Shown: positions 3,581 to 45,624, counted from the stretch's first letter. The stretch is DNA of 64,000 bases from an uncultured Erysipelotrichaceae bacterium (GCA_902800905.1 CADCGC010000002.1:59774-123773); one strand, 5' to 3'. Notes: a model not told the origin generated them from the letters alone. A program made the numbers and translations.

Positions 3581-4876
3581 TTATTTATTTTCTTCAAACA
3601 AGACACTTTCTGTTGTGTCTTCATCGAATAGATGGGTTTTCTTTAAATTGAAAACATATTTGTTGCTATCATCTTGTTTGATGTTCCATTTAGCGTTGAC
3701 TTTAATTGAAATTTTTTCGTCTTTGATTTCAGTATAGACAATTCTTTCATAACCAAGAAGTTCAACAAAGTTGCATTTTAGTTCGATTGGCTTACTAGCG
3801 TTTTCTTTGTTTGGGTCATCTGCAAGATAGATATCTTCTGGTCTTACTCCAAGAATTAAATCGTGTTTGTTTCCATTAATAATGCTTTCAACTTTATCAA
3901 TTAACGCTTTATGTTTTTTTAATTCTTCATCATTATCAAATTCGATTGGTTTTTTACGTTTGCTGTTTTCAATCGATTTGTTATATTCTTCAATTTCAGA
4001 ATATCTTTCAGTGTATTGCTTCTTTACTTTTAAAAGTAAATTGGAATAGTAATTATCGTGCTTTTTAATTTCTTCTTTATTCAAAGAATATTCTAAAGAA
4101 TCTGCAACAAGAATCTTACCTTTATCATATGTTACTTTTATGAAGTTCATTGATGGACTACCAATGAATCCGGCAACAAAGATATTCACTGGATGAGAAT
4201 ATAATTCTTCTGGAGTTCCGATTTGTTGAATATAGCCATCTTTCATAACAACAATACGATCCGCCATAGTCATCGCTTCGGTTTGGTCGTGGGTAACATA
4301 AATTGTGGTTGCTCCGACTTTTTGATGAATCTTAATGATTTCACTTCTCATTTGAACTCTTAATTTAGCGTCCAAATTACTTAAAGGCTCATCCATTAAG
4401 AAGACTTTTGGCTCTCTAACGATTGCTCTACCTAAAGCCACTCTTTGACGTTGTCCACCAGAAAGGGCTTTTGGCTTTCTATCTAAGTATTGTTTTAATC
4501 CAAGGATTTCTGCAGCGGCTTGAATTCTTTTATCAATCTCTTCTTTACTCATATGTCTAATTCTTAGACCGAACGCCATATTTTCATATACAGACATATG
4601 TGGGTATAGAGCATAGCTTTGGAACACCATTGCGATGTCACGATCTTTTGGATGGACTTCATTGACTAGCTTATCGTCGATATATAATTCGCCGTCGGTG
4701 ATTTCTTCTAGTCCCGCTACCATTCTTAAAGTTGTGGATTTCCCGCATCCTGATGGACCGACAAAAACAATGAATTCTTTGTCATTGACTTCTAAGTTAA
4801 AATCAAAAACAGCCTGAACATTGTTGTCATATATTTTGTTAATATTAACAAATTTTAAAGATGACATATTTTGCAC
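3581..4876 (-). CDS. sugar ABC transporter ATP-binding protein, MalK/MsmX/UgpC family, with a ~60-70 aa insertion in the C-terminal regulatory domain
   Basis: Walker [11 protein letters not shown]-loop, ABC signature [15 protein letters not shown], Walker [13 protein letters not shown] and H-loop. At 431 aa it is longer than the typical ~370 aa. Confidence 0.9.
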
Positions 4877-6478: not shown

Positions 6479-6557
6479 ATTTATATTAGTGAAAGTGTTT
6501 ATAACGATTATAGATGCTTTTTGATATGAAACCATAATGGCAGAAAGGAATTCATTT

Positions 6558-15803: not shown

Positions 15804-16703
15804 ATGAAAAAAGCTAAACGCAAGCATAATTCTCGTTCTTATCTGCTAACCAAAAGAGAAAAAATCATTTTAGGTATTGTTTTTGTTTTGCTTCTAATCT
15901 ATGCTTTGTCTCTTATTTTCCCATTCTTCTTTTTGCTGATGAATTCTTTCAAGGATGAAGTTGAATATTTTTATGACTCAACAGGTTTCCCAAAGACTCC
16001 AACATTTGAGAATTATATTACTTTATTTAGTGGTTATAAGGTTGGAACAGGTATTGGTGATGGCGAAGCCACTATTGGAGAGATGTTCTGGAATTCTATC
16101 TCACTAGCGGTTGTTGAAACAGTCACATCAATGTTCTTTACTTGCTGTGCAGCTTATGTTTTAGCAAAATACAAATTCCCGGGAAATAAATTCTTATACA
16201 CCTTTGTTATTGTTAGCTCTGTTGTTCCTACCATTGCAGCTATTTCTGCTACATATCGATTGATGTCAGATATTCAATTAATTGGAACATTTATTGGAAT
16301 GATTATTATGAACTGTGGCGCCTTTACTGGTGGGTTCTTATATATTCACAGCTATTTCAAGAGTATCCCTTGGTCATTTGCGGAATCTGCGATGATTGAT
16401 GGGGCAAGTGATTTTAAAATTTTCTTTAGAATTATGATTCCAATGGCGAAGAACGGAATCCTTACTTTCACTATTTTGAGATTTTTGGGATTTTGGAACG
16501 AATATTGGATTCCATATTTGTTCTATCCAAACCATCCAACTTTAGGTGTTGGATTGACTCTTTTAAAAGCAGAAGCTGTTAATACAGGTAGTTACACGAT
16601 GTTATTTGCTGCAATGATCGTGGCAATCGTTCCTATTTTGATTTTCTACGCTATATTCCAAAAACAATTATTATCAAATACTATCGACGGAGGATTGAAA
16701 TAA
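15804..16703 (+). CDS. carbohydrate ABC transporter permease (MalG/AraQ/LplC-like)
   Basis: 6 TM helices. EAA loop ESAMIDGASDFKIFFRIMIPMAKNG. Confidence 0.8.
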   Translation: MKKAKRKHNSRSYLLTKREKIILGIVFVLLLIYALSLIFPFFFLLMNSFKDEVEYFYDSTGFPKTPTFENYITLFSGYKVGTGIGDGEATIGEMFWNSISLAVVETVTSMFFTCCAAYVLAKYKFPGNKFLYTFVIVSSVVPTIAAISATYRLMSDIQLIGTFIGMIIMNCGAFTGGFLYIHSYFKSIPWSFAESAMIDGASDFKIFFRIMIPMAKNGILTFTILRFLGFWNEYWIPYLFYPNHPTLGVGLTLLKAEAVNTGSYTMLFAAMIVAIVPILIFYAIFQKQLLSNTIDGGLK

Positions 16704-16710: not shown

Positions 16711-17625
16711 ATGAATGTCCAAGTGTTGAATAAGAAAAAGAAGAAAAAGATTAACGTTAGGCGAGCGCTTTTTATCGCTGGAATGTTAGCGATTCCACTC
16801 ATTCAATTTGGAATATTCTTTGTTTATGTAAATATCAATTCTATCTTGTTGACATTTAGAGTTGTTGATCCAATCACTGGTACATACGGATGGGGACTAG
16901 ACAATTATCAAGACTTCTTCTATCGATTCACTGAATATCCTGATTACAAAGATGCGATATTTAATTCGTTGATGTTTGGTCTTAATGATTTGCTCCTTGT
17001 TTTGATATCTCTTGTTTTAGCGTATTTCTTCTTTAAGAGAATACCTGGCACTCAATTCTTTAGAATTATATTCTTCTTACCATCTATTATCTCTATTGTT
17101 ATTTATACAATGGCGTATTCATTGATGTTTAAGGCTGGCTCAGGTCCAATCAACGTTTTAATTACTTCTTTAGGAGGAGAGGAGCCAGATTGGCTACTTG
17201 ATGAAAACCTAGCAAGAATGCTTGTTATGATTTATTGTTTGTGGGTTGGTACCGGATATAACATTTTGATTTTTGGTGGTGCGATGGCAAACATCAATAC
17301 TGAAGTTATTGAGTACGCTAAACTCGACGGTGTCGGCATGTTTAGAGAATTATTCCAAGTTATTCTCCCGATGATTTGGCCAACACTATCGGTTGCATTC
17401 ATTGGTAGTGTTACTACTGTCTTTACATTATTTATTCAAGTTAAATTAATCGTTGGTGATTCGTTTGGAACACCTCGAACAATCGCATTCTTGATTAACG
17501 ACAATGTTATGAGTAATCAGGAAAAAGCCGCCACAATTGGTATTATTTTCACCGTTGTTGCTACCCCGGTTATTTTACTTGTCAGAAAACTTATTGATTA
17601 CGTTGGAAAGAAATTTGGTTATTGA
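16711..17625 (+). CDS. carbohydrate ABC transporter permease (MalF/AraP/LplB-like)
   Basis: EAA loop EYAKLDGVGMFRELFQVILPMIWP. Multiple TM helices. Confidence 0.8.
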   Translation: MNVQVLNKKKKKKINVRRALFIAGMLAIPLIQFGIFFVYVNINSILLTFRVVDPITGTYGWGLDNYQDFFYRFTEYPDYKDAIFNSLMFGLNDLLLVLISLVLAYFFFKRIPGTQFFRIIFFLPSIISIVIYTMAYSLMFKAGSGPINVLITSLGGEEPDWLLDENLARMLVMIYCLWVGTGYNILIFGGAMANINTEVIEYAKLDGVGMFRELFQVILPMIWPTLSVAFIGSVTTVFTLFIQVKLIVGDSFGTPRTIAFLINDNVMSNQEKAATIGIIFTVVATPVILLVRKLIDYVGKKFGY

Positions 17626-17646
17626 TATAAATTGGAGGCCATATTT

Positions 17647-19956
17647 ATGAAAAAACAACTAACTCTATTACTCGGACTATTTGGATTAACTGCCATTGCT
17701 TTTAGTGCGGTTGGTCCAAACTATCATTCAACAAGAGCAGGATCAAAAGAAATCCTAATTGTTGATGACAATTTTAATGATGGCAATTATCGTCAAAGTT
17801 ACGATCCATCAAAATGGTTAGAACCGATTGGAGGACACATTAGACAATCAGATTCTAATGAAAGTTATTTAACAAATAAGGGAGCGGCAGCCACTAATGG
17901 TGAAAGACTTATGTTTGGCACCAAACAAATGGTTCAAGGCTTATCCTTATTTAAAATTGATGTCTGTCTTAGGAATGATGAATGGGTAGGAATTAAGTTT
18001 TATAAAGAACTCCAAACCCCTAGTTCAATGGCCCAAAATGCATATGATATGTCAATTCTTTTCCATAAGAGTGGAATTACTCCAAATAATAGTGTCTCTA
18101 CTGGACAACAATTATTTAGACATGATGGAACAGAAGCCCCCTCTGGCGGAATTGGATTACTTGAGGTTTGTGGTATCTCTAGTTCTATTGGAAATTGGGT
18201 GACTCTCGACTTTGTTCCAATTGATGCGAATAATATGACTCTCTACGTTTATCCACAAGCAGAAGGTCGTAACGCTGACAGATCTGTGACCATTAAATGT
18301 AGTGAAGATGGACTTATGAATTATGGGAATTGCCAAATTGGTATTCAAGCCAGTAATGGTGCAAGATATTCAATCGACAATTTAGTGATCGAAAGTACAA
18401 ATATAAATGTTAATGAAGAATTCGTTTCTTTTGATGATTCACTTCCAGAGAATCCTTTGGGATACGTCAAAAAGAATGGCGGTTCTTATGTTTTAGATGG
18501 TAACAGCACTCTTAGATTTGCTCCAGAAGCAATGGAAGGAGAAAAATTTGTTACTAAAAAGAAAATTGCTCTTGATATGACTATTGCAGCAGCAGTTGAA
18601 ATGATTAATGCGAAATTCAATCTTAAATTCAAATCAACCGCAGCCTCTAGTGAAAAAATCGCGTTCTTTGTTGGCTTAAGTAACGCTAGCTATGATTTAT
18701 CTCAAGGCGGATGTTACTTAGAATTTAACAAAACAAAGGTTGAATTAAAACTCTTCAAAAATGGTGTTCTAATTAATAGTGAAGAAGAACAAAGAATTCA
18801 AAAGGCAATCGATGGATTAACAAGTTCTGAAGGTAGAAATATTACTGTTTCTGTTCAAAAGAACGGAATTCTTAGAATCTATGTTGAAGATGAACTTTTA
18901 TATTCTTTAGAAGACAATGAAAACGAAGAAATGAGAGTGTCAAAATACGCTGGATATGTTGGCTTTGCGGTAACTGGTGGTTTAGCTCAAGAAGTCAATG
19001 TTGATAACGTGTTAATTAAATCTGCAAGTTATTATGTACCAGTGACAAAATCTGTCACCCATAATTTCTCTAATGATTTCTTTGGAAACGAAGGACATGA
19101 AGATTTCTATATTCCTGATAGTTATGCTGGAAAGATTTCAGTAAAAGATGGAAAACTTGATTGGGATAACTGCGCTGATAACGCGATGTTTGGTTCTGCA
19201 TATCAATATGATGCCTTTATATTAGATTACAAACTTTGTAATGTTAGAGTTGGTGAAGGATATACAGCCCCAAATAAATGGATTGGTTTAGATCTCTCTA
19301 GAGAAAGCAAATATGTTACTGAATATGGTAGTTATTTAATGCCATATATTGAAATCGTTCCAACTACTGAAGAAGTTAGAATGAATTTCTATAAGAAAGA
19401 TTCTTCTCCTCTTGATGCAAACGAGCTTGTTAAGAATATGATTGTTGAACACAAGAGAATCCCTGCGAAATGGTTTAGAGACATTCAATACACAAACGCA
19501 TCTGATGTTTATAACATTAAAGAAGAAAACGCGGTTTGCATTAGATGGGTTAGTGATGGCACAAACTTAGACTTATACCTCAAGAGAGCGGATGACCCAG
19601 TATTTGGTGAACCATATTACACAATTAAGAATCTTGAAATCCAAGGTTACTTTACTTTGACTGTCACTGGTTGGACAACCCTCCAATATGATGATTTCTC
19701 AATGGCAAATACCTCAACTCTTTACGTTTGCGCGGATAACGAATCTCCAGAGACAATCATTGATACACAAATCACAATTATCTATGAACCTGGCACAGAC
19801 ATTAACTTAGGCGAAGAAGTTAGATTATATAGCAACAACACTCTTTGGATTATTTTGGTTGCGGCTTTAGGAACAACTACTGTTGCCTTTGCTGCTTTAT
19901 TTATCGTCAATCTTGTTAGAAACAAGAAGATGAAAGGAGGAGCAAAGAATGAATAA
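17647..19956 (+). CDS. membrane-anchored surface protein (N-terminal signal peptide, C-terminal TM anchor plus basic tail), function unknown
   Basis: Start trimmed to MKKQ behind GGAGG. Signal LLLGLFGLTAIAFSA. C-terminal LWIILVAALGTTTVAFAALFIVNLVRNKKMK. It contains a DNLVIES...FVSFDD segment similar to the ends of the beta-sandwich modules in the neighbouring proteins. Confidence 0.5.
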   Translation: MKKQLTLLLGLFGLTAIAFSAVGPNYHSTRAGSKEILIVDDNFNDGNYRQSYDPSKWLEPIGGHIRQSDSNESYLTNKGAAATNGERLMFGTKQMVQGLSLFKIDVCLRNDEWVGIKFYKELQTPSSMAQNAYDMSILFHKSGITPNNSVSTGQQLFRHDGTEAPSGGIGLLEVCGISSSIGNWVTLDFVPIDANNMTLYVYPQAEGRNADRSVTIKCSEDGLMNYGNCQIGIQASNGARYSIDNLVIESTNINVNEEFVSFDDSLPENPLGYVKKNGGSYVLDGNSTLRFAPEAMEGEKFVTKKKIALDMTIAAAVEMINAKFNLKFKSTAASSEKIAFFVGLSNASYDLSQGGCYLEFNKTKVELKLFKNGVLINSEEEQRIQKAIDGLTSSEGRNITVSVQKNGILRIYVEDELLYSLEDNENEEMRVSKYAGYVGFAVTGGLAQEVNVDNVLIKSASYYVPVTKSVTHNFSNDFFGNEGHEDFYIPDSYAGKISVKDGKLDWDNCADNAMFGSAYQYDAFILDYKLCNVRVGEGYTAPNKWIGLDLSRESKYVTEYGSYLMPYIEIVPTTEEVRMNFYKKDSSPLDANELVKNMIVEHKRIPAKWFRDIQYTNASDVYNIKEENAVCIRWVSDGTNLDLYLKRADDPVFGEPYYTIKNLEIQGYFTLTVTGWTTLQYDDFSMANTSTLYVCADNESPETIIDTQITIIYEPGTDINLGEEVRLYSNNTLWIILVAALGTTTVAFAALFIVNLVRNKKMKGGAKNE

Positions 19957-21430
19957 TAAAGATAGAATTATTTCTTCAATAGGATTTGTTCTAACTCTTG
20001 TTCTTCCTTCTTGTAATGCAGGACAACTAAATGTCCCTGCTTTTGAGCATGACCCTAATAAGAGAATTCATATTACCGCTTATTCAGGTCCAACAAGAGC
20101 GAAATTAGTTACTCCAACTAGTCCAGAAACCCTTACTGAAGAGCATATGAGAAAAGTCTCTGAAGCAGGCTTTACAAAGATTCTTGCTCTATATGAAGGC
20201 GCTGGTAGACAAGTAGGCAATGATACCTATGAAATCATTGAAAATCTATCCCAAAAAGCGCAAGAGGACGCCTTAATTGCTTTAGACTTAGCGGAACAAT
20301 TTGGCATCAAATACTATGTCAGAGACTGGTCATTTTATGGAATGGTTAAGCAATACGCTGACCCAACATATAACCATCCTGCCATTTTAACTGATGAGCA
20401 ATATGACAAAGTGCTTAAGAAGATGTTCGATGAAAATAACCAATATATCCATCATCCTGCTTACGCTGGTAATTTCTGTCATGATGAGCCGTTTTATAAC
20501 GAGCTTGATCGTATCGCAGTTCAAGTTGATTTATACCAAAAATATATGGCAGAACAAAATGCTTATGGTGAGCCGATTGTTAATCTTTTACCAATGACCG
20601 CTGGCGCAGACGCTTTCAGTGGACATTCATATTATGAATATGTTGATCATTATTTTGATTTAATCGCACCAAAAGTTGGCTTTGTTTCTTATGACTTCTA
20701 TCCATTTAGAGAAGATAAAGATGATGGAAGCTATTTGAAAGATTTATATGTTCCAAACCTTAACCTTATGGCGACAAAATGCAAGGATAACAATATTGAT
20801 TTAAGAACATTTATCCAAGCTGAAGGTGATTTTACCGGAACAAGAAGCATGACTGGTGCGGCTGATTTCAGATTCCAAATCTACACTGAACTTGCCTTTG
20901 GTTCTAAAGAAATTATTTATTATGAATACGCAAATGCGAAGAGCCAGGCAGACCCAGAAGCCGATTATGCTTTATTTAATACTGAAACAGAAGAATATAA
21001 CTGGACATATGACGCTGCAAAACTTGTGAATAATGAAATTCATCAAATCGAAGATGCATATTTGCAATATAAGTGGGATGGTGTTATGTACAAGTGTGCA
21101 AATGAATTAATTGAGAATATTGGTTTCTCTTATCTTAAAGGAGAAAAATATACTTTTACTTCTCATCCACGTGTGAGCATTGAAAATTGTGAACGTGACG
21201 CTCTTATGGGTGTGTTTAAAAACGAAGCAAACGATGATGCGTTTATGCTAGTTAATTACACAGACCCATACTTCAAATTCAACAACAAAGTAACCCTTCA
21301 TTTTAATAATGCAAAAGGATTACTTATGTATCGTCTTGGACAAAAAATGGTGGTTGATCTCCCTTCTAGTGGTAACTATACATTTGATCTTTATCCTGGT
21401 GAAGGAAGATTCATTATTCCAATTAATTAA
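19949..21430 (+). CDS. lipoprotein, uncharacterised conserved enzyme-like family (paralogue 1 of 3, possibly a TIM-barrel glycoside hydrolase-like domain)
   Basis: GGAGG RBS. Lipobox LVLPSC. It shares the blocks ..EAGF.K.L.L(Y/F)EG, NLLP, YFD.IAP.VG(F/Y)VS(Y/F)D.Y, N(I/V)DLRTFI, F(R)FQIY..LAFG(S/A)KEIIYY.Y and W(S/K)WDG with 22878..24068 and with the C-terminal third of 24058..28371. Confidence 0.5.
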   Translation: MNNKDRIISSIGFVLTLVLPSCNAGQLNVPAFEHDPNKRIHITAYSGPTRAKLVTPTSPETLTEEHMRKVSEAGFTKILALYEGAGRQVGNDTYEIIENLSQKAQEDALIALDLAEQFGIKYYVRDWSFYGMVKQYADPTYNHPAILTDEQYDKVLKKMFDENNQYIHHPAYAGNFCHDEPFYNELDRIAVQVDLYQKYMAEQNAYGEPIVNLLPMTAGADAFSGHSYYEYVDHYFDLIAPKVGFVSYDFYPFREDKDDGSYLKDLYVPNLNLMATKCKDNNIDLRTFIQAEGDFTGTRSMTGAADFRFQIYTELAFGSKEIIYYEYANAKSQADPEADYALFNTETEEYNWTYDAAKLVNNEIHQIEDAYLQYKWDGVMYKCANELIENIGFSYLKGEKYTFTSHPRVSIENCERDALMGVFKNEANDDAFMLVNYTDPYFKFNNKVTLHFNNAKGLLMYRLGQKMVVDLPSSGNYTFDLYPGEGRFIIPIN

Positions 21431-21444
21431 AGGAGTTAATCAAA

Positions 21445-22854
21445 ATGAAAAAAGGAAACAAACTTATTGGAACATTGTTATTTAGTTTAGCAATGATTCT
21501 TCCATCTTGTGGTGGAACTCAAGATGACTTCAAAGGCACTTACATTGACTTTGGATTTTTGAAAGCAGGTATTGGCACTGAAGTTTATGAAAAGATCGCG
21601 GAAGCCTACCACACTGAACACCCAGATTACAAAGTCAAACTCCATGCCTCTATTGATATTAACAATATTGCGAAGAACTCATTTGAATCTGGAAAGAATA
21701 TCTATGATATTTATTCTTTAAGACAAAATAACGTTATTACTCAATACTATATCAAAGGATACTTGCTTGATTTAAAGGATGTTGTTTATAACGCTGAAAT
21801 TGCTGATGGAAAAACGCTTTTAGAATTATGTGATGAAAGCGTAATTGAGTATTCAAAATATTCCACAGAGAGAGATGGTGTGGTTGAAGACCACTTTGTC
21901 AGTGTTCCAGAGTTCGTTAATGTTAATGGCTATGTTTATAACAAGAAACTATTTGCACAACACGGATGGAAAGTTCCAAACACTACAGAAGAAATGAAAG
22001 CTCTATGCTTACAAATTGCTGCAGCAGGAATTTCGCCGATTGTTTTCTGTTCACCTAACTCCGCTGATGGATATGTCTATTATCTTTTAAACGGAATTAA
22101 TACTCAGTATGAAGGCATTCAAAATATGAAAGATGCCTATAAGTTTGAAAGTGCAGAAATCTTTAATCCTAGTAATCGTACAGGTAAACTTCACGCACTA
22201 CAAACCTTCAAAGATTTGTACAAGGAATCTAACGGACTAGTTTATCCTAACTCAATCAATATTGACGCTCAAGAAGCACAAAAAGCTTTGCTTTTAGGAA
22301 GAGCAGCAATGATGGTTAATGGTTCTTGGTTTGAAACAGAAATGAGAAAATTCATTGATCCAAGCAAGCATGAATTAGCGATGTTCAAAGTTCCTGAATA
22401 TTCTGAAGACGGAGAAATTCTCCATGCTCCTGGATACACAAACGATGGTAAAGGAATCATCGATAGTGAATATACCGCCGAATATGTTATTCCTACTTTG
22501 GCTCCTCATAAAGAAGCCGCAATCGATTTCTTAAAATTCATGCAAAGACCAGATATTTGTGAACTTTATACAAAGTATAGTAACAATATCCGTCCATTCA
22601 AATATAACAAAAACCCAGAGAGTAGTGTTTATTCAAATATGTCTTCATTTGGTAAAACTGTTTTACAACTCGCAAATGAAAACACACTCTTTGTCGCATC
22701 ATCAAAACATCCAAAATACATTCTTGGTGAAATCTCTTATTGGCCATCAGGTGATAGTGATAGGTATCACACCAATAGACTTCTTAGACAAGACAAAGAA
22801 CCAATTGATTGTTTAGAGGTTGAATATAATAACGCCAAGAAGGTTCTTGGATAG
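21445..22854 (+). CDS. lipoprotein, carbohydrate ABC transporter substrate-binding protein (family-1 SBP, LplA/MalE-like)
   Basis: AAGGAG RBS. Lipobox ILPSCGG. ~470 aa, the size and composition of a cluster-D sugar SBP. It sits between the permeases and the enzyme paralogues. Confidence 0.55.
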   Translation: MKKGNKLIGTLLFSLAMILPSCGGTQDDFKGTYIDFGFLKAGIGTEVYEKIAEAYHTEHPDYKVKLHASIDINNIAKNSFESGKNIYDIYSLRQNNVITQYYIKGYLLDLKDVVYNAEIADGKTLLELCDESVIEYSKYSTERDGVVEDHFVSVPEFVNVNGYVYNKKLFAQHGWKVPNTTEEMKALCLQIAAAGISPIVFCSPNSADGYVYYLLNGINTQYEGIQNMKDAYKFESAEIFNPSNRTGKLHALQTFKDLYKESNGLVYPNSINIDAQEAQKALLLGRAAMMVNGSWFETEMRKFIDPSKHELAMFKVPEYSEDGEILHAPGYTNDGKGIIDSEYTAEYVIPTLAPHKEAAIDFLKFMQRPDICELYTKYSNNIRPFKYNKNPESSVYSNMSSFGKTVLQLANENTLFVASSKHPKYILGEISYWPSGDSDRYHTNRLLRQDKEPIDCLEVEYNNAKKVLG

Positions 22855-22877
22855 ATTAAGAATAGGAAGATTTAACT

Positions 22878-24068
22878 GTGAACAAAGATATTAAATTTGG
22901 CTTTTGGAATTACGCTCCGTTTGGTGTTATTAGTAACAAAGAAGCGGTAAAAGATTGGGTTAATGCTGAATCTAATTTACCGATGAGCTTTGTTTATGAT
23001 TTTCATAACGGAAATAAAGAAGAAATAATTGAACTTCTTGATGAATGCCAAAAGAGCAACTTAAAGTTAATCATTTCTGATACCAGAACTATTTTTAGAA
23101 ATCTTTGTTCAGTCAGTGAAGAACAATTTAGAAAAGACGTTAAAGCGGCGTTTGATGATTTCGGTCATCATCCTGCCGCTTTCGGCTTCTTTGTTGGAGA
23201 CGAACCTTCTCCTGAAGAAACAGATTTATTTATAAAAGCCGTTAAAATTGTTAAAGAAGAAACGCCTGGACTAGTTCCTTTTGGTAATCTTCTTCCATAT
23301 TTTGGAGCAAGTGACCATGTCTTAGACATTGGGAACAAAAACTTTGAATATTATTCCAATCTAGTGGGCAAGATATTAAAAGAAACCGGACTTCCAGTTA
23401 TTGGATACGATCAATATAGCCAGTGCTTAGATGATTTAGGCAATCAAGAAACCGGAATCAATAGCTATTTCATTGGTTTGGACAAATATTATGACTTATG
23501 TAAGAAGAACGATTCTTCCTTCTATATCTCTCTTCTTTCGGTTGGACACTGGATGTATCGCGTTCCAAGTGAAGATGATATTAGATGGCAAATATCGACC
23601 GCTTTTGCTCATGGGGCTAGAGGAGTTATTTGGTTCTATTTCTATCAAGATGATAAAGATTATAGTTATCGCTTATCTCCATTTACAAATTATGGACTCA
23701 AGAAAACTCCGATGTACGATATCGTGAGTCGAGAACAATATCTCTTCAAAAAAACATTTGAAGATCAATTCAACAAAATGGAACTCGTTAATGTTTATCA
23801 TCTAGGCCATATATATGATGAAAACAAAAGATTTGTTTATGACGAATATATCAAAGATGTAATGGTAGATAGAAAACTTCCTGTTATCATTTCGTATTAT
23901 AAAGAATTTAATAGCGACAAAAAGTGGGTTTCATTTGTTAATGGATCTCAAAAATATGCGAGTATTTTAAGAATCACATTTTCTAAAGGACACAAAGAAG
24001 TGTTCTGGCTTGCTCCTGGAGAGATGAGACTATTTGATTTAGACGAGGTTTGCACTAGTGAAGAATAA
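22878..24068 (+). CDS. cytoplasmic paralogue (2 of 3) of the uncharacterised enzyme-like family
   Basis: GTG start and no signal peptide. HHPAAFGFFVGDEP, GNLLPYFG, GYDQY, GARGVIWFYFYQD correspond to the same blocks as in 19949..21430. Confidence 0.5.
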   Translation: MNKDIKFGFWNYAPFGVISNKEAVKDWVNAESNLPMSFVYDFHNGNKEEIIELLDECQKSNLKLIISDTRTIFRNLCSVSEEQFRKDVKAAFDDFGHHPAAFGFFVGDEPSPEETDLFIKAVKIVKEETPGLVPFGNLLPYFGASDHVLDIGNKNFEYYSNLVGKILKETGLPVIGYDQYSQCLDDLGNQETGINSYFIGLDKYYDLCKKNDSSFYISLLSVGHWMYRVPSEDDIRWQISTAFAHGARGVIWFYFYQDDKDYSYRLSPFTNYGLKKTPMYDIVSREQYLFKKTFEDQFNKMELVNVYHLGHIYDENKRFVYDEYIKDVMVDRKLPVIISYYKEFNSDKKWVSFVNGSQKYASILRITFSKGHKEVFWLAPGEMRLFDLDEVCTSEE

Positions 24069-27000
24069 AACCATATCTATTTTGTTTTTAGGAGTTATTG
24101 GAGTTGTCGCATCTGCGATAGCTTTATCGCACTCTCATGATGTTGCTTTAGCTAGTGGAACGGATGAACATTCAAGTTCATGCACCTGGAATCACTATTT
24201 AAGAGTTGAACCGACATATGAAAATGATGGAATACAAGAATATTATGTCTGCTGTTCTCATCATGAAAGCGTTCTAGAAAGACCAACACTTGGGACAATC
24301 GTTGATAAAGGCACTCCATCCTCTTCTTTTATCAGTGGTTTAGAAGATAATGATTTCAGATTAATTCCTTCATATCGAAAACAAGTTAAACCAGTTCAAG
24401 ATGAAATTGATGGGCTTTCTGAGGCGTTTAAGATATCTGATGGCAGTCAAATTGATAAAGCATATAACCTTTATAACAACACTAGTGAAGAGCTTAAAAC
24501 CTATGTTAATGATGTTTCAAAATTAGAAGGCATTTATGAGAGATACCACGAATCATATGATGTTCTTATCGATACAGTTAATAATGAATATCAATCAAAG
24601 ATATATAATTCGAATTATGATGTTGAACCAGTTTTAAATGAAAACGCTGGATATTGTTCTTCTTTTACTAATATCACTCCAACTGATGACAACTGGATTG
24701 GTTTTGGCACTTCAAAGACCACAAATATTTCAAACTATAGCGAGATATTGCTCTATGTATATAGCAACCTAAATTTCGATTGTGATTTTGATGTTAGGTA
24801 TTCTGGTAGCACTTTTGACTTAACAAACAAAGTTAAAGTTTATTCTAAATCATGGAGTGAAATAACAATTCCTCTTTCAACATTTATAACAAATCAATTG
24901 AAAGACTTATTTGTTGGTACATGGATTAGTGATGCTAGATATAACACTTTTGAGAATGGGTTTTTATTCTCTTCGCTTTACGGCGTTAAAAAGATTACTA
25001 CCCCAAGTAGAACATATATTGATTTGTCTGATGATCAAAAGACCACTGACACAGTCAACTTTGTTGGTGACAAATATATTGAAGACGTGAATTATGCAGC
25101 CTTTGTTTATTCTCCTGCTTATTCTGCTTCACTTGGAAAAGTTAACTTTATTACCACTCAACCATATAGCAACGTCACCTCTGTTAGTTTTGATGCGAAG
25201 ATCGATGGAACGGCGACAGGATGGTGGGGTATTGGCCACTCAACCTCTATTGAAAACGCAAGAATATATAACGGAATGTGCACAACCGGTGTCAAAAACA
25301 CTCAAAACGAATTCCAACATATCGCAATTAATGTTAGTGTAACTGACCCGGAATACATTTACTTTATTTTTGAAGTTGGAACATTTACTAAAAATGTCTA
25401 TATCGATAATGTCACTATCGTTAGTGGTGGAGTTGAATACACTGATGATTTTGATAGCGGTTCTTCAGCCTTATTTAATAATTCTTCATCAGTTTTAGGA
25501 AATGCAGTTAGCATTCAATTAATCAGTAGCGATGCTAAATTCTTATCACGTTCAGTAAAAGACTACTATGTTGAAGTTAGTCCATATAATTACGATACTT
25601 CGACATTATATACACGTTCATCTTATACAGGTGTTTATAAGGTTTCTTATGACGCAAAAGTTGATGGAACAATTGTTAATAATCTTTCAAACAATGAACA
25701 AATTTGGTGGGGTTTTGGTGTTACTGATGACCCAACAAACGTTTACTCTGGACTTCAATTTGTTAGAGAAGTGCTATCTACTGATAATGAATGGAAACAT
25801 TTTGAATATGAGATTCAAACTCCAGTTGATGGATATGTTCACTTTGTGTTCAATCCATTAAAGACGAATGTTCCTGTTCTTTTAGATAACATTACTTTCT
25901 TTACTGAAGGTAGTGTCTTTGTTGAAAACTTTACTGATGGGCTATCCACTTTATTTAATGTTGGCGCTCATCTTGATATTAAGAAGAAGAGCGACCCATC
26001 AATTACCTTCAATGGTGGAATTAACGCCTCAGAAAAAGACTATTCTGTCTTAATGGATATTTATAATTATGGCAACGTTTCTGGCAATGAAGCGACATTT
26101 AAAACAAAAGTTCCATATAACAACGTTACGAGTATCTCCTATGATATGAAGATTGATGGGACCATAACATTTACAAACACAGATCCATATTGGGTTGGTG
26201 TCGGTCATGACGCAAATCAAAACGCTAGTATCTATAAAGGACTTAGAACATCTAACACATTTACTACTAATGATGGTTGGATGAGATTTACATATACATT
26301 CTCTGGACTAGGCTTAGAATATTTCTTCTTTGTTTCTAATCCTGTTCACGCCCATAACAATGTTTATTTTGACAATGTCATTATTGTTAGTGATGGAGTG
26401 GAATACACTGATACATTTACCAACGGAAAGAGCGAACTATTTAATTTAGGTTCTTATGTTTCTTTACATTTTGAATCAGAAAGCATGACCGATGAAATTG
26501 CCTATAATGTATTAACAGAGAGTCAATGCTATTTTGAAGGTCCTCAATTTGTTAGAGATAATTTAGAAAATTATGAAGCCTTAGTGTATGGCTCTATTGC
26601 TCATCAAATTACAGGACAAGGAAGGTATGCGATTCTTATTTATAATGATTTGAATGTTGCGGAATATTTATTTGTTGATGATGAATATATTTCTTACTGT
26701 TCTAATACTTCAATAATTAATGCCACGTCTTATAATGGGCAGTCTTATAACATCAGTGTTTCAGTAGATGGAAGAATAACAATTAACAATCAGATTCTCG
26801 CTATTTCTAGTGGAGTTAATGATTCACTTAAATTTGTGTCGTTCTTTAGCCAAGGTTCGGTTGTCTTTACTGATATTTCTTTAGATTCAACTTATAGAGA
26901 AATTCATACTTCTGAAACAATTGATGGAATAGAAGTTCCTTACTTATATTCAGAAGATAATATTGTGTTTAACGCATATGGTTCTCCAACAGTTGCCGAT

Positions 27001-28371
27001 TGGAATGGTGTGAAAGATAGTAACCCAACTATGGCGACTGATGAAATCTTCCAAGATTACTATGACGCTGGATTTAGAAAGTGCTTGCCACTTTTTGAAG
27101 GACGAACTGGAGCAAGATATGACTTCAATACTTATTATGATTTGTATCTTGAAGCAACTGGTTCGCAAAAAGAATCATACAAAAACCAATGTATCCAAAA
27201 ACTCGACATTATTTGTGAAAAAGCCGACAGAGACGCGATGGAAATAATGTCTGTTGCCTCTAAATATGGAATTAAATATATTGTTCTTAATTCAATTATT
27301 TTTGAACTAATTGGACAAACTACTCCAAACGGAAACAATATTCAGATTGAAGATTATCCATGGATTTTTGATCGTGTCTTTAGAGATGACAGCGAATATT
27401 TCTATCAAGTTCAATACGTTGGTAACTTTATGCAAGATGAACCAATTGGTGTTGAAGGACTTGAAAGATTATATGCGGCTGTTGTTTTGTATTATCAATA
27501 TACAGCGGCTTTAGGAATTGAAAGTGAACCTGTTATTAATCTACTTCCTGGAAACTACACGGATAATAATTATGTCGCTTATCTTGATTATTATTTTGAA
27601 CATATTGCTCCTCTTGTTGGATATGTTAGCTTTGACCAATATGTCTTACAAGTTTCTAATGGCACTTATTCAGTGAAGTCCACACACTTATCTAACTTAT
27701 ATTTATTAGCCTCACGAGCAAAACAATATAATGTCGATTTAAGAACGTTCATTTTCCCAAGATGTCAGGATGAGGGAAGTAATAGAGGCATTACAATGGC
27801 GGATGAACTAAGGTTCCAAATTTACGCCAATTTGGCTTTTGGTGCTAAAGAAATCATCTATTATGGTTATACAACTCATAACAGCACAAATGAAACAGAA
27901 GGTCTTGTTAATATGTATACCGGAGAGAAGAGCGATGTATATTACTACGCTAAAGAAGTTAATAACGAAGTATTATCTTTCGGTCAAGCATATATGCATT
28001 TCTCATGGGATGGAATTATTGGTAAAGACACTGGTGGGTGGCTAAGTAAAAATACCTGCCTAACTCAATTAAGTAAACTTAATTCGATGAATAGTCACGC
28101 TGGATTATCATCTTTCTCTGTTAATAAGAACTCACTCATTGGTTGCTTCAAAGATAGTGATTCTCAATACGCATATATTCTTATGTATTATGGCGATCCA
28201 AAAACCGCAAGTGGAACAGACACAATTCAATTAACTTTCTTAGACAAATATAATGGCGTTATTGTTTATCAAAACGGTGGAAAACACGCTTATCGAATTG
28301 ATAATCATAAGCAATCTATTACTCTTAATCCTGGTTGTGGAGCGTTTGTTATCCCGGTAACTTTAAATTAG
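24058..28371 (+). CDS. 1437-aa surface protein with an N-terminal anchor, a Cys/His mini-module, 3-4 WWGFG beta-sandwich (CBM-like) modules, and a C-terminal enzyme-like domain (paralogue 3 of 3)
   Basis: GTG start overlapping the upstream gene. N-terminal hydrophobic segment ILFLGVIGVVASAIAL. The repeats and the C-terminal homology (NVDLRTFIFPRCQDEG..ELRFQIYANLAFGAKEIIYYGY..YMHFSWDG) are read directly from the translation. Confidence 0.6.
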   Translation: MKNKTISILFLGVIGVVASAIALSHSHDVALASGTDEHSSSCTWNHYLRVEPTYENDGIQEYYVCCSHHESVLERPTLGTIVDKGTPSSSFISGLEDNDFRLIPSYRKQVKPVQDEIDGLSEAFKISDGSQIDKAYNLYNNTSEELKTYVNDVSKLEGIYERYHESYDVLIDTVNNEYQSKIYNSNYDVEPVLNENAGYCSSFTNITPTDDNWIGFGTSKTTNISNYSEILLYVYSNLNFDCDFDVRYSGSTFDLTNKVKVYSKSWSEITIPLSTFITNQLKDLFVGTWISDARYNTFENGFLFSSLYGVKKITTPSRTYIDLSDDQKTTDTVNFVGDKYIEDVNYAAFVYSPAYSASLGKVNFITTQPYSNVTSVSFDAKIDGTATGWWGIGHSTSIENARIYNGMCTTGVKNTQNEFQHIAINVSVTDPEYIYFIFEVGTFTKNVYIDNVTIVSGGVEYTDDFDSGSSALFNNSSSVLGNAVSIQLISSDAKFLSRSVKDYYVEVSPYNYDTSTLYTRSSYTGVYKVSYDAKVDGTIVNNLSNNEQIWWGFGVTDDPTNVYSGLQFVREVLSTDNEWKHFEYEIQTPVDGYVHFVFNPLKTNVPVLLDNITFFTEGSVFVENFTDGLSTLFNVGAHLDIKKKSDPSITFNGGINASEKDYSVLMDIYNYGNVSGNEATFKTKVPYNNVTSISYDMKIDGTITFTNTDPYWVGVGHDANQNASIYKGLRTSNTFTTNDGWMRFTYTFSGLGLEYFFFVSNPVHAHNNVYFDNVIIVSDGVEYTDTFTNGKSELFNLGSYVSLHFESESMTDEIAYNVLTESQCYFEGPQFVRDNLENYEALVYGSIAHQITGQGRYAILIYNDLNVAEYLFVDDEYISYCSNTSIINATSYNGQSYNISVSVDGRITINNQILAISSGVNDSLKFVSFFSQGSVVFTDISLDSTYREIHTSETIDGIEVPYLYSEDNIVFNAYGSPTVADWNGVKDSNPTMATDEIFQDYYDAGFRKCLPLFEGRTGARYDFNTYYDLYLEATGSQKESYKNQCIQKLDIICEKADRDAMEIMSVASKYGIKYIVLNSIIFELIGQTTPNGNNIQIEDYPWIFDRVFRDDSEYFYQVQYVGNFMQDEPIGVEGLERLYAAVVLYYQYTAALGIESEPVINLLPGNYTDNNYVAYLDYYFEHIAPLVGYVSFDQYVLQVSNGTYSVKSTHLSNLYLLASRAKQYNVDLRTFIFPRCQDEGSNRGITMADELRFQIYANLAFGAKEIIYYGYTTHNSTNETEGLVNMYTGEKSDVYYYAKEVNNEVLSFGQAYMHFSWDGIIGKDTGGWLSKNTCLTQLSKLNSMNSHAGLSSFSVNKNSLIGCFKDSDSQYAYILMYYGDPKTASGTDTIQLTFLDKYNGVIVYQNGGKHAYRIDNHKQSITLNPGCGAFVIPVTLN
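25138..26450 (+). repeat. three tandem ~140-aa beta-sandwich modules (V(S/K)(F/Y)DAK(I/V)DGT....WWG(I/F)G....(I/V)Y.G......W.....(Y/F)..........F.F......V.(I/L/F)DN(V/I).....G.....E.FT.G.S.LFN)
   Basis: The three copies end in VYIDNVTIVSGGVEYTDDFDSGSSALFN, VLLDNITFFTEGSVFVENFTDGLSTLFN and VYFDNVIIVSDGVEYTDTFTNGKSELFN. Confidence 0.65.
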
Positions 28372-28391: not shown

Positions 28392-30677
28392 ATGAAAAAA
28401 TCATTTATTTTATCCGCATTAATTCTAAGTCTTTCTCTTTTGAGTGGCTGCACAAGTAATTCCGATAGTGGAGGTGGAGGAGGAGATCCTATTGACCCAG
28501 AAGAACAATGTGAACATAGTTATAAATATCACCAAAAGGTTGAAGCCACTTGTACTGAAGATGGAAACGAAGCATATTTTTCATGTTCCAATTGCGACAA
28601 GATTTTTAACGAAAAGAAGCAAGAAACCCCATATTCTGAACTTGTTATCCCTGCCTTGGGACATGATATTGGACACGTTAATGCGACAACTCCACGCAAT
28701 TGCTTGGAACTAAGTGTCATTGAACATTATCACTGTAGTAGATGTGAAAAGAACTTTGAGGATGAAGCCGCTACTATTGAACTCGATTCAATCGATGGAT
28801 ATTATGGTGAGCATAATTTCGTTGATTACCCTGCCAAAGCCGCTTCTTGCGCTGAAGAAGGGAACATTGCCTATGCCGAATGTTCTTATTGCCATAAAAT
28901 ATATTCAATTGATCATCAAACCCAGATTACTGACGGTTCATATATTATTGAAAAAACACAACACCATTTGACACATCATGAAGCTGTTCAATTTGAAAAT
29001 ATTGAATATTGGGAATGCTCTGAATGTGAAAAAAAATTCTCTGATGAAGACGGAGGCGAAGAAGTGGAAAATGTTTCTATTCGTGATGAACACGATTTAT
29101 TAAATGATAATGTTAAGAATTATCTTGCCGCGACTACTGAAGCAGATCAAATCAATGCTTTAAGAGTATCAACTCCATTTAATAATCAAGTTAGAAAAGT
29201 CCTTTCATGGAAAACTAATGATAATGGACCATACACTATTGAAGTCTCTGAGAGCCAAGATTTTACCAATCCTATGACATTTACTGCTTCTAATTCACCA
29301 TTAACTCTTCCTGGAACATTATTCCCAGGACATACATATTATTGGAGAGTAAAAGATAGTTCTGATCAATTAGTAGTGACCATTGAAAGATTTATTGTTG
29401 ATGGCACTTATCCAGTTAGAACTCTATTCGTTGATGGAGTCTCTAATGTTAGAGACGCTGGAGGATGGACTGCTAAAGACGGAAACAAAGTCCTTTATGG
29501 AAAAATCATTAGAGGTGGAAGATTAAGAGATATCACTGAGGATGGCAAAAAAACATTCTTAGAAGATTTAGGCATTAAAACCGAACTTGATTTAAGAGGC
29601 GATGGTGTAAGTGATATTTCTGATTCTAGACTCACATATATCAAGCAAGGACTTAACCAATACACAATGCTAGTTCCTAATTATCTTTCTCCTATCGTTC
29701 AAGGAAAAGGTGATTTAAGATATGGGTTTGACACCACAACTCCTAATGCGCTAGCGGCAATTTTCAATGTCTTAGCCGATTCCTCTAATTATCCAATTTA
29801 TTATCACTGCAATGCTGGAGCAGATAGAACCGGTTCATTAACTTATTTAATCAATGGTCTTCTTGGTGTTTCTTATGAAGATTTAACAAGAGATTTTGAA
29901 TTAACAACATTCTCTGCTCAAGGAAACAGATTCCGTAGTGGTGTTAGTGGAAATAGTTTTGTTTCTACTGGTGAGATGGCAGGAATCTATGAATGTGACT
30001 CCCTTAACTATGTCGCTTGGGGAAAACTTCACGAGCTTATTTCCACCAATTACGCGCAAGAAAACGGACAATTATGTTCGGCGATTGAATATTATTTGAA
30101 GAAAGTTTGTAAGATTTCTGATGAAACAATTAAACAAGTTAGAAGAAACCTCTTAGGAAAAGATGTTGAATTTGATGAAGTGGTTGTGGAAGACGAAAGC
30201 ACAGTGTTTACTCCTGAAAATGGTAACCAGACATTAGCAAATCAAATAGAATATGAAAAAGGTAATTTCTTCGGTAAATTGTCCTATAAGTTCACTGCCT
30301 ATACTCCAACTGGCCAAGGCAAAGTTGACCACTATATTTATCATAATTTAGATATTATTAATAATCCTGCCTACACAAAATTCCATTTTGATGTCTATGT
30401 TCCAGCGACAAGTGCAAAGTGGAACACAAGTGAAGGAAAAGATACTGGAGCAAGATTTGCAATCTCCGCAAAAGCTTCATCGACTACACGTATTGAATTT
30501 AGTGATGAATTCTCTTCATCATCTACTAATAAATACAAGATTATTACTGATGAGTGGATGACTTTTGAAATTGAGATTTCTCAGTTTAGTAATCTCATTC
30601 GTTTTGCGTTCTATTTGCCTTATGCTACTGAGCAAATTCCAGCGATAGTGTATTTTGCAAACGTCCACGTTTCTTAA
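28392..30677 (+). CDS. lipoprotein with N-terminal Cys/His-rich repeats, an FN3-like segment, a CX5R protein-tyrosine-phosphatase-fold domain (Y_phosphatase3/Siw14-like) and a C-terminal beta-sandwich
   Basis: Lipobox LSLLSGCTS followed by a Gly5 linker. Repeated C.H..Y.....A(T/S)C.E.GN.AY..CS.C.K.(F/Y). The PTP-domain entry is NVRDAGGW...LYG..IRGGRL, and the P-loop is HCNAGADRTG at about 29804-29833. Confidence 0.6.
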   Translation: MKKSFILSALILSLSLLSGCTSNSDSGGGGGDPIDPEEQCEHSYKYHQKVEATCTEDGNEAYFSCSNCDKIFNEKKQETPYSELVIPALGHDIGHVNATTPRNCLELSVIEHYHCSRCEKNFEDEAATIELDSIDGYYGEHNFVDYPAKAASCAEEGNIAYAECSYCHKIYSIDHQTQITDGSYIIEKTQHHLTHHEAVQFENIEYWECSECEKKFSDEDGGEEVENVSIRDEHDLLNDNVKNYLAATTEADQINALRVSTPFNNQVRKVLSWKTNDNGPYTIEVSESQDFTNPMTFTASNSPLTLPGTLFPGHTYYWRVKDSSDQLVVTIERFIVDGTYPVRTLFVDGVSNVRDAGGWTAKDGNKVLYGKIIRGGRLRDITEDGKKTFLEDLGIKTELDLRGDGVSDISDSRLTYIKQGLNQYTMLVPNYLSPIVQGKGDLRYGFDTTTPNALAAIFNVLADSSNYPIYYHCNAGADRTGSLTYLINGLLGVSYEDLTRDFELTTFSAQGNRFRSGVSGNSFVSTGEMAGIYECDSLNYVAWGKLHELISTNYAQENGQLCSAIEYYLKKVCKISDETIKQVRRNLLGKDVEFDEVVVEDESTVFTPENGNQTLANQIEYEKGNFFGKLSYKFTAYTPTGQGKVDHYIYHNLDIINNPAYTKFHFDVYVPATSAKWNTSEGKDTGARFAISAKASSTTRIEFSDEFSSSSTNKYKIITDEWMTFEIEISQFSNLIRFAFYLPYATEQIPAIVYFANVHVS
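28510..29040 (+). repeat. three to four Cys/His-rich ~40-aa repeats, possibly small metal-binding modules
   Basis: CEHSYKYHQKVEATCTEDGNEAYFSCSNCDKIF; NCLELSVIEHYHCSRCEKNF; ASCAEEGNIAYAECSYCHKIY; EYWECSECEKKF. Confidence 0.5.
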
Positions 30678-30700
30678 TTAGATATTACTAAATTATCATA

Positions 30701-30731
30701 GGGGAATTCGTTAATGAATTCTCCTTTTTTG
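30701..30731 (+). terminator. strong rho-independent terminator ending the 15-kb operon
   Basis: GGGGAATTC-gttaat-GAATTCTCC followed by TTTTTTG. Confidence 0.7.
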
Positions 30732-38263: not shown

Positions 38264-38272
38264 GAGGCAAAT

Positions 38273-41032: not shown

Positions 41033-41038
41033 AAACAT

Positions 41039-41455
41039 ATGAGTAAAAGCGTAGTCAGAACATATCCACTTAAAGGACTATCAATCTTCCTATCCGTTGT
41101 TATTGTCCTCTCAATCGGACTATCAATTGGTATTGTGTTCATAGAAGACCTCTTAGTATTAAGAATTGTTATCTGGGTATTTTCTGGGATCTTCGCAATT
41201 ACATCAATTGTCGTCTTATTAAAAGAAGCGATTATCTACTTGTCTTTTGATGAAGAAAGCGAGATTCTCACTTCTCACGAATTCATAATAAGACGCAAGA
41301 TACCGCTAACAAAGATTAGCCGTATCGAAGTTAAAGATGGTTTCTATGTCTTCTATTCAGGGAAACAAAAAATCTACACTCTTGGGGCAGATCGCCCTAA
41401 TGCTAATGAATTAGCCCTGGCGTTAGAAAGACATAAAATAAAAATTAAATGGTAA
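41039..41455 (+). CDS. small membrane protein with two TM helices and a bacterial PH-like (YdbS/DUF304-type) C-terminal domain
   Basis: Two hydrophobic helices, then LSFDEESEILTSHEFIIRRKIPLTKISRIEVKDGFYVFY, typical of bPH_2 proteins. Confidence 0.4.
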   Translation: MSKSVVRTYPLKGLSIFLSVVIVLSIGLSIGIVFIEDLLVLRIVIWVFSGIFAITSIVVLLKEAIIYLSFDEESEILTSHEFIIRRKIPLTKISRIEVKDGFYVFYSGKQKIYTLGADRPNANELALALERHKIKIKW

Positions 41456-41480
41456 AAATTTTAGTAAAAGGAGGCTATTT

Positions 41481-43358: not shown

Positions 43359-43365
43359 TTAATTT

Positions 43366-44172: not shown

Positions 44173-44182
44173 GGAGGTTCAT

Positions 44183-45586: not shown

Positions 45587-45624
45587 TTAAACAATAATTC
45601 TTTTTAGAAGAAAGGAGGAATTAT

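Follow-up and report, generated by a model that had tools for sequence, protein, structure and literature searches.

A 64,000-nucleotide (nt) stretch of DNA from an uncultured Erysipelotrichaceae bacterium (GCA_902800905.1, CADCGC010000002.1:59774-123773; hereafter the window) encodes three members of a protein family that, from its predicted structures, is best read as an unannotated, glycoside-hydrolase-like descendant of the GH42 branch within glycoside hydrolase (GH) clan GH-A. Copy 1 (19949-21430, + strand; 493 amino acids, aa) is a lipoprotein, copy 2 (22878-24068, +; 396 aa) is a cytoplasmic remote paralogue, and copy 3 (24058-28371, +; 1437 aa) is a secreted or anchored protein whose C-terminal catalytic-type domain (aa 958-1437; 26929-28371, +) is paralogous to copy 1. 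The three proteins very likely belong to a new GH42-related family of enzymes that process glycans on both sides of the membrane; their target is probably a single glycan, cut first outside the cell and again after its import. The explanation that best accounts for the data as a whole, to which we give a probability of about 0.45, is a GH42-derived family that cleaves glycan at the surface and in the cytoplasm, around an ATP-binding cassette (ABC) importer, by substrate-assisted catalysis.

Homology and fold of the three copies

The original prediction had placed three genes within 19949-28371 and described them as paralogues; all three are present there. Over 498 aligned columns, copy 1 and aa 958-1434 of copy 3 share 32% identity (E 7e-62). 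A similarity so far beyond chance marks copy 1 and the C-terminal ∼480 aa of copy 3 as clear paralogues. Copy 2, which overlaps the GTG-initiated copy 3 gene by 11 nt at its end, is more distant: it matches copy 1 with 27% identity over 184 residues only (E 8e-10) and has no significant BLASTP match to copy 3. Family alignments were also compared, each built from 120 homologues gathered for copy 1 (A1) or copy 2 (A2). The two profiles align over 357 columns with 98.6% probability (E 8e-16), which places copy 2 in a sister subfamily and makes it a true but remote relative of copy 1. Paralogy is thus clear for copies 1 and 3, and for copy 2 it holds at the level of profile and fold.

The motif blocks that had been listed as common to all three proteins divide in the same way. 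In a three-way alignment, NLLP, (Y/F)D.Y and R(F/W)QI...A.G are present in every copy, and four of the six listed blocks do not extend to copy 2; EAGF..L.L(Y/F)EG, YFD.IAP.VG, N(I/V)DLRTFI, KEIIYY and W.WDG are confined to copies 1 and 3. The most conserved motif, G-x4-D-E-P (G.F..DEP), also occurs in all three copies and was missing from that list. Chance similarity and mis-called open reading frames (ORFs) were considered and rejected, as an independent cattle-rumen metagenome scaffold in the ENA carries an identical locus with the same gene calls, including the 1437-aa copy 3 and, as a 769-aa protein, the neighboring gene product p774. A search with the copy 3 domain gave only 17 matches and no informative fusions.

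Searches of Pfam, NCBIfam and PDB sequences returned nothing for the three proteins save chance-level matches to meprin and CheY, and the named homologs of copies 1 and 2 are all called “hypothetical protein.” Keyword searching of the literature found no paper describing the family, and no solved structure belongs to it. With the family alignments as input, AlphaFold2 gave models of copies 1 and 2 with a predicted local distance difference test (pLDDT) score of 93.3 and 93.5 and a predicted template modeling (pTM) score of 0.91 and 0.93, respectively. Both comprise an eight-stranded (β/α) barrel followed directly by a β sandwich, which in copy 1 correspond to approximately aa 40-400 and 409-492. 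The two models share not only this fold but also their best PDB matches, which are β-galactosidases, an arabinopyranosidase, and a β-mannosidase; GH140, GH5, GH35, and other clan GH-A barrels follow, at 8-17% identity, and Foldseek concurs. The suggested relationship to clan GH-A is therefore right at the level of the fold, and the description of an unannotated, enzyme-like family with a single fold is borne out.

The relationship to GH42 itself is closer in structure than in sequence. None of the three window proteins matches the GH42 model PF02449 at E ≤ 0.1. Among 70 copy 2 relatives, sub-threshold Pfam matches were to GH42 (8/70), DUF4434 (11/70), and GH99 (6/70); only the distant member P0394 scores above the GH42 gathering threshold of Pfam, through a partial match to profile positions 245-375 (β6-β8). 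When the family was compared by hhalign with a GH42 profile made from eight annotated plasmid-borne β-galactosidases, probabilities were 1.8-7%, with the register at β7 uncertain by one residue. These values are too low to sustain membership of GH42 at the sequence level, and that assignment was dropped. Compared with the GH42 structures 3tts, 1kwk, 5xb7, and 5e9a, the family retains the acid/base Glu at the end of β4, the β6 D-x-Y-P motif, probably the β5 Asn, aromatic residues at β8, and the C-terminal β sandwich. Unlike them, it is only 11-17% identical and comprises proteins of 396-493 aa rather than ∼650-700 aa, from which the central trimerization domain of GH42 (Glyco_hydro_42M) is absent; no PF08532-type match was found, and the barrel leads directly into the β sandwich. 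In addition, many family members are lipoproteins or form the C-terminal domain of secreted proteins of 900-2200 aa. The GH164 β-mannosidase Bs164 of Bacteroides salyersiae (6t5o) shares 9-11% identity with the family.

The placement proposed originally, with one copy outside on a lipid anchor, one inside the cell, and one at the end of a giant surface protein, agrees with the signals found. Copy 1 has a lipobox (LVLPSC), similar to the ILPSC of the adjacent solute-binding protein (SBP); copy 2 has no signal sequence; and copy 3 has a hydrophobic N terminus, with a signal/anchor segment at residues 3-27, and the homologous domain forms its C terminus. Copy 3 had also been called rich in carbohydrate-binding modules (CBMs). 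Pfam recognizes no CBM in it, but jackhmmer detects three tandem copies of a 130-160-aa module (aa 345-474, 475-634, and 655-796; 25090-26445, +) with E values of 1e-29 to 1e-46. These repeats, which a BLASTP self-comparison missed, contain the periodic motif DNV(T/I)I...F.xG.S.LFN at aa 450-472, 610-632, and 772-794, and are putative glycan-binding β sandwiches. Four further copies of the module (aa 315-444, 452-590, 621-750, and 773-900) make up much of the lipoprotein p917 (6537-9290, +), which lacks a catalytic domain and matches the MAM domain weakly, below threshold. Weak MAM-domain similarity was likewise seen in 7 of 24 giant copy 3-like relatives, and dockerins in 6 of the 24. Type I dockerins occur in the giant proteins of an Acutalibacteraceae metagenome-assembled genome (MAG; L007/L045), which suggests that copy 3-type domains can be built into cellulosome-like assemblies. 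In a 2026 paper, “mucinolysomes” that degrade mucin are proposed for Acutalibacteraceae (PMC12997984), a lead that concerns only these dockerin-bearing relatives.

An invariant acid/base Glu and a missing β7 nucleophile

In the copy 1 model, the eight barrel strands span residues 41-45, 77-79, 121-124, 172-179, 208-213, 245-249, 284-290, and 321-325. The G.F..DEP motif lies at the end of β4, where D179-E180-P181 (20483-20491, +) would supply a putative assisting Asp and acid/base Glu; the equivalent residues are D108-E109-P110 in copy 2 (23199-23207, +) and D1127-E1128-P1129 in copy 3 (27436-27444, +). Conservation was scored in two sets of relatives, comprising 108 non-redundant domains from 67 related loci and 146 cluster representatives, together ∼250 sequences with <50% identity. 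D-E-P is invariant in the family alignment (64/64 sequences), in all 108 locus-derived domains, and in the aligned representatives, where D179 and E180 are each found in 139/139. Among the 24 giant relatives, D1127-E1128-P1129, D1193, and Y1195 are also invariant.

When the copy 2 family is aligned with the GH42 profile, “FGFFVGDEP” falls on “IGWHISNEYG,” with D108-E109 over the N-E pair. Because the motif aligns in this way with the ISNEYG of GH42, E180, E109, and E1128 are identified by alignment as the acid/base of clan GH-A, and the conserved acidic residues anticipated by the original prediction include an invariant Glu at just this position. The conserved Asn that precedes the acid/base in the clan is not kept; it is replaced by the invariant Asp. 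A second GH42 motif is retained at β6, where SYDFYP, GYDQYS, and SFDQYV of the three copies align with the WDSYP of 5e9a and with the W-D-x-Y-P of the GH42 profile. The alignment thus indicates that the β6 motif is inherited from GH42 and is not new. Within it, D249 is present in 140/141 representatives and Y251 in 141/141; elsewhere, Q310 is found in 141/144 and G318 in 144/144.

The position of the GH42 nucleophile, the Glu of “FVLME,” is occupied in copy 1 by Q290 (20816-20818, +), the last residue of β7. By alignment, this Glu falls on I289/Q290 of copy 1 and on L220 of copy 2, where β7 ends in the copy 2 model. Between β6 and β8, the ungapped hidden Markov model (HMM) alignment to 5e9a loses its register; a three-residue correction there also pairs “DFT” with the “SFT” of GH42. 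Position 290 is Gln in 84 of the 146 representatives, Leu in 22, Ala in 9, Trp in 7, Lys in 6, and Tyr in 4. Glu is not a common residue there, and occurs in only four of the 108 locus-derived domains; neither set of relatives has a conserved carboxylate anywhere in positions 288-294. A conserved Arg follows 8-9 residues past β7 (R299 in copy 1 and R228 in copy 2). By these alignments, the canonical β7 nucleophile is missing throughout the family while the Asp-Glu pair is invariant. The loss of the β7 Glu sets the family apart from ordinary retaining glycosidases of clan GH-A. It also distinguishes the family from Bs164, which has been captured as a 2-deoxy-2-fluoro-mannosyl-enzyme intermediate (entry title of 6t75) and hence uses an enzyme nucleophile.

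Overall, the family lacks the Pfam match, the trimerization domain, and the nucleophile of GH42, and it departs from clan GH-A in two defining catalytic features, having Asp-Glu in place of the N-E motif and residues such as Gln, Leu, Ala, or Trp in place of the β7 Glu. It is a candidate new GH family, with a remodeled catalytic center on a GH42/GH164-type scaffold.

A conserved locus around an ABC importer

A profile of the family identified 3,873 cluster representatives (50% identity) at E ≤ 1e-3 and 2,389 at E ≤ 1e-10, among 1.84 billion; in many of these, the domain forms the C terminus of a 900-2200-aa protein. Gut and rumen Firmicutes account for most of the family. A genome scan found 59 loci. 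The hosts are uncultured Bacilli, Erysipelotrichaceae, Christensenellales, Oscillospiraceae, and Acutalibacteraceae of gut and rumen, together with Haloplasma and Izemoplasma, and more distant members occur in Bacteroidia, Anaerolineae, Kiritimatiellota, and some Clostridia.

The consensus locus comprises a divergent AraC-type regulator, a GH78-type gene, two permeases, p774, a copy 1-like gene, an SBP, a giant copy 3-like gene, a copy 2-like gene, GH95, and GH112. Counted over 61 distinct loci, copy 1 is linked most closely to p774, which lies directly upstream of copy 1-like genes in 40/61. The SBP is equally frequent (40/61), the permeases are found in 36/61 each, and the cassette permease-permease-p774-copy 1-SBP recurs in ∼40/61. 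The regulator is present in 26/61 loci and copy 2 in 20/61. The commonest enzymatic neighbor is the GH78-type gene (18/61), usually directly upstream of the permeases (for example in L001, L007, L020, and L025), followed by GH95 (14/61), GH112 (11/61), GH2 (7/61), and a GH38-type gene (5/61; Pfam match on one cluster member, in L001); GH130 appears in two to three related loci. Taking all counts of related loci together, the figures are 36-39 for permease 1, 36-40 for permease 2, 17-18 for the GH78-type gene, 13-14 for GH95, and 9-11 for GH112. A copy 2-like gene immediately adjoins GH112 in L008, L011, L020, L042, and L044. A lipobox or signal is present in 35/39 copy 1-like proteins, no signal was found in any of 13 copy 2-like proteins, and in many loci a lipoprotein copy and a cytoplasmic copy occur as a pair. 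The outside and inside copies first suggested from this window thus do surround an ABC importer, and dozens of genomes repeat this arrangement.

In Bacteroidia and some Clostridia, the distant members adjoin a GH38-type α-mannosidase gene and a putative GH92-type gene, neighbors that would fit N-glycans. In three loci from Bacteroidia MAGs (L060, L063, and L065) there are two tandem pairs of distant members, ∼400-425 aa long and with signal peptides. These adjoin the GH38-type cluster gene, the putative GH92-type gene (assigned from sequence alone), and a 632-aa kinase-like gene, so that this locus type differs from that of Firmicutes.

In the window, the three copies belong to an eight-gene operon consisting of permease 1 (15804-16703, +; PF00528), permease 2 (16711-17625, +; PF00528), p774, copy 1, the SBP, copy 2, copy 3, and p761, with successive intergenic gaps of 7, 6, -8, 14, 23, -11, and 20 nt. 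It is closed by a terminator-like hairpin with an 11-bp stem and a T run (30700-30725, +). The ∼770-aa extracellular protein p774 (17647-19956, +) has a signal peptide and a C-terminal membrane anchor, corresponding to hydrophobic segments at residues 9-30 and 736-763, and its gene, stop codon included, runs 8 nt into copy 1. Its start is more likely the ATG at 17647, which stands behind a GGAGG, than the TTG at 17632 given by ORF calling. No known domain, and no Pfam or NCBIfam match, was found in p774 itself; 18 of 41 members of the p774 family match the copy 3 repeat module, and p774 is possibly a tethered glycan-binding protein.

The SBP (21445-22854, +; PF01547) is the solute-binding lipoprotein of the importer. 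Its closest solved relative is Blon_0883 of B. infantis (9h0n; E 1.3e-22), followed by chitooligosaccharide binders, and it has weak NCBIfam matches to the CPR_0540 and NgcE families. Blon_0883 binds galacto-N-biose (GNB), lacto-N-biose (LNB), and two trisaccharides, H type 1 and Lewis a (bioRxiv 10.1101/2025.02.07.637197). The loci of this bifidobacterial importer of GNB, LNB, and fucosyl-LNB resemble the present one not only in the SBP but also in the presence of GH95 and GH112 and in a logic that leads from extracellular enzyme to SBP to cytoplasmic trimming. They differ in that here the extracellular and cytoplasmic enzymes are of an unannotated family, the conserved partners include p774 and a GH78-type enzyme, and the hosts are uncultured rumen and gut Firmicutes.

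Several of the enzymes common in related loci are encoded near the operon. The GH112 gene (47-2242, +) is predicted to encode a 1,3-β-galactosyl-N-acetylhexosamine phosphorylase (TIGR02336, 868.6 bits against an equivalog cut-off of 560.3; E 7e-211 to 2zus); it is separate from the three copies, none of which matches the GH112 model PF09508. A cytoplasmic GH95 α-L-fucosidase-type enzyme (13524-15668, -; PF22124, 129 bits) is encoded next to a GH78-type six-hairpin enzyme with no signal peptide (11591-13522, -; PF17389, 64.9 bits against a cut-off of 24.5), which scores only 27 bits against the solved rhamnosidase RhaB. GH2 (9345-11594), a MalK-type ATPase, and GH130 also lie upstream of the operon, on either strand. 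No signal peptide was found in the GH112, GH130, GH2, GH78-type, or GH95 proteins. At the far end of the window, a 353-aa APH-family protein (61282-62343, +) is a homolog of NahK (E 1e-95 to 4ocu and 4wh1). By homology, GH112 and the NahK homolog constitute the first two steps of the GNB/LNB pathway, and the family thereby shares with the bifidobacterial pathway a genomic link to both; in the related loci, NahK shows no linkage to the family. Because of the NahK homolog and the relatives of the SBP, the GH112 is more likely of the N-acetylhexosamine (HexNAc) type than a Gal-β1,4-Rha phosphorylase, which would favor rhamnogalacturonan.

The last operon gene encodes the lipoprotein p761 (28392-30677, +), which has Cys-rich repeats at its N terminus and contains a tyrosine-phosphatase-like domain (PF13350). 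It is not a conserved partner, being found at one other locus only (L044); its C..C/H motifs resemble those near the copy 3 N terminus, and a surface phosphatase is odd in a glycan operon. Elsewhere in the window, a MalK-type ATPase gene adjoins a gene for an RDD-family membrane protein twice, at 3581-4876 (-)/5386-6450 (+) and at 41481-43358 (+)/43366-44172 (+), and the second ATPase is unusually long, at 625 aa. This second pair is part of another sugar cluster (36254-48116, +), comprising GH13, a pullulanase-type protein (PUD, CBM48, GH13), MalK, RDD, an SBP, and two permeases, which is probably for starch or glycogen.

Proposed function, mechanism, and alternatives

From the localization signals, the retained catalytic residues, and the conserved neighbors, we infer a hydrolase activity and a division of labor across the membrane. 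At the cell surface, copies 1 and 3 would cleave a glycan, copy 3 aided by its repeat modules, and the anchored p774 may take part. The SBP would catch the released oligosaccharide and the permeases import it. In the cytoplasm, copy 2 would continue the breakdown beside GH95, the GH78-type enzyme, and sometimes GH2, GH130, or GH38; GH112 would then phosphorolyze the resulting Gal-β1,3-HexNAc, which NahK would process further.

In clan GH-A, the residue that precedes the acid/base faces C2 of the sugar in the −1 subsite. The retention of the Glu, the exchange of the adjacent Asn for an invariant Asp, and the loss of the β7 Glu lead us to propose that catalysis may be substrate assisted, with a neighboring group of β-linked N-acetylglucosamine (GlcNAc) or N-acetylgalactosamine (GalNAc) replacing the enzyme nucleophile, as in GH20, GH123, and GH18. 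It is the combination of a GH20/GH123-like Asp-Glu signature with a residue that would face C2 that favors HexNAc cleavage, and we put forward this mechanism tentatively, with the odds leaning somewhat against it. Substrate assistance is documented for GH18, GH20, GH56, GH84, GH85, and GH123, and in the GH20 lacto-N-biosidase LnbB the catalytic pair is formed by the consecutive residues Asp320-Glu321 (PMC9016705). The likeness to GH20 and GH123, namely an adjacent Asp-Glu after a barrel strand and no β7 carboxylate, is one of possible mechanism and not of membership, since the copies have no Pfam match and their barrel is of the GH42 type.

The reaction might be endo-acting or block releasing, resembling that of a lacto- or galacto-N-biosidase or of an endo-β-N-acetylglucosaminidase. 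Release of LNB/GNB blocks, with or without fucose, would fit GH112, GH95, NahK, and the SBP, whereas cleavage of an N-glycan core would fit the GH130, GH2, GH38-type, and putative GH92-type genes. Because GH112, NahK, GH95, and an SBP related to a binder of LNB, GNB, and fucosyl-LNB all point the same way, glycans bearing Gal-β1,3-HexNAc carry more weight as substrates than rhamnogalacturonan or arabinogalactan. In its most specific form, the proposal is that a GH42-type scaffold of clan GH-A has switched to neighboring-group catalysis, giving a new CAZy family of endo-acting or block-releasing β-N-acetylhexosaminidases that operate outside and inside the cell, from a widespread and as yet unannotated Gram-positive locus for host or plant glycans with Gal-β1,3-HexNAc; we regard this version as rather doubtful.

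Several observations weigh against substrate-assisted cleavage of HexNAc. The assignment of Q290 and L220 to the nucleophile site depends on predicted strand ends and on alignments of low confidence (hhalign 1.8-7%, register ± one residue). Neither GH20 nor GH123 appears in the top 60 structural matches. Since D249 comes from GH42, it is no evidence of a new mechanism. The resemblance of the SBP to Blon_0883 is remote (83.7 bits), and about half of the loci have no GH112 or GH95 within 10 kb, which makes the link to HexNAc circumstantial. The commonest enzyme neighbor is of the GH78 type, suggesting rhamnosides, and rhamnose-containing glycans such as bacterial wall polysaccharides or pectic glycans are possible substrates. 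This frequent neighbor and the many loci lacking GH112 or GH95 are the chief findings that a HexNAc substrate leaves unexplained.

Other carboxylates could also serve in place of the β7 Glu. Position 306 is Asp or Glu in 140/143 representatives, E363 is acidic in 129/146, and either of these or the invariant D249 could be an alternative nucleophile or base. The copies could then be ordinary Koshland-type glycosidases of a new GH42-like family, in which E180 is the acid/base and one of these residues acts as nucleophile in a retaining enzyme or as general base in an inverting one. The substrates would be β-galactosides, β-mannosides, or α-L-arabinopyranosides devoid of HexNAc, as in GH42 and GH164, in keeping with the activities of the best structural matches. 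The GH2, GH130, GH38-type, and putative GH92-type genes could likewise mean substrates rich in mannose or galactose, and the GH78-type neighbor points to rhamno-glycans of plants or bacteria. Position 306, however, lies in the first turn of helix α7, 16 residues past β7, which would be an unusual catalytic site. This explanation also leaves the invariant exchange of Asn for Asp next to the acid/base unaccounted for, and Gln, Leu, Ala, or Trp is tolerated at the nucleophile position throughout the family. On balance we consider it unlikely, though it is the most serious competitor to substrate-assisted catalysis.

The Gln at the nucleophile site of copy 1 is a classic inactivating substitution that preserves binding, and copy 1 sits between an anchored multi-module protein and the SBP. 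Both facts would suit catalytically dead GH42-like descendants that now bind glycans, with copies 1 and 3 capturing substrate at the surface. That D-E-P, D.Y, N(L)LP, and the R/Q positions are absolutely conserved over ∼250 sequences with <50% identity argues for chemistry and not for binding alone; cytoplasmic copies, signal-less in 13/13 cases, would be useless for capture, and tandem outside/inside pairs are many. We therefore hold loss of activity to be improbable.

GH112, too, has a GH42-like barrel that carries one catalytic acid only. Copy 2 and the other signal-less members, which lack an enzyme nucleophile, keep the Arg that follows β7, and adjoin GH112 in five loci, might by analogy be glycoside phosphorylases that use phosphate as the nucleophile, leaving the secreted copies as hydrolases. 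GH112 is not among the top structural matches, though, no phosphate-binding motif was identified, and the same catalytic motifs are found in the extracellular copies, where phosphorolysis is implausible, so that we give this division slightly less credence again. Least probable of all is a TIM-barrel enzyme of another kind, an esterase, epimerase, or lyase acting on sugar that is GH42-like by fold only: it would be compatible with the lack of any matching family model or characterized homolog, but not readily with the retained acid/base Glu and GH42 β5 and β6 motifs, nor with loci made up of glycosidases, a phosphorylase, and a sugar importer.

As the family is invisible to annotation based on Pfam, NCBIfam, and the PDB, profiling of carbohydrate-active enzymes with such models would miss a recurrent, and probably highly specific, glycan system in metagenomes of uncultured rumen and gut Firmicutes. 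The conserved partners, namely p774, the repeat modules, and the GH78-type enzyme, make this a defined operon for experiments. New GH families turn up regularly, and the mechanism in this case is one that we infer. If the activity is as proposed, it would define a new CAZy family, with possible tools for the release or transfer of LNB/GNB blocks or N-glycans. If the mechanism is also correct, a GH42-type barrel would have been converted to substrate-assisted catalysis, which would inform the evolution of catalytic machinery within the clan.

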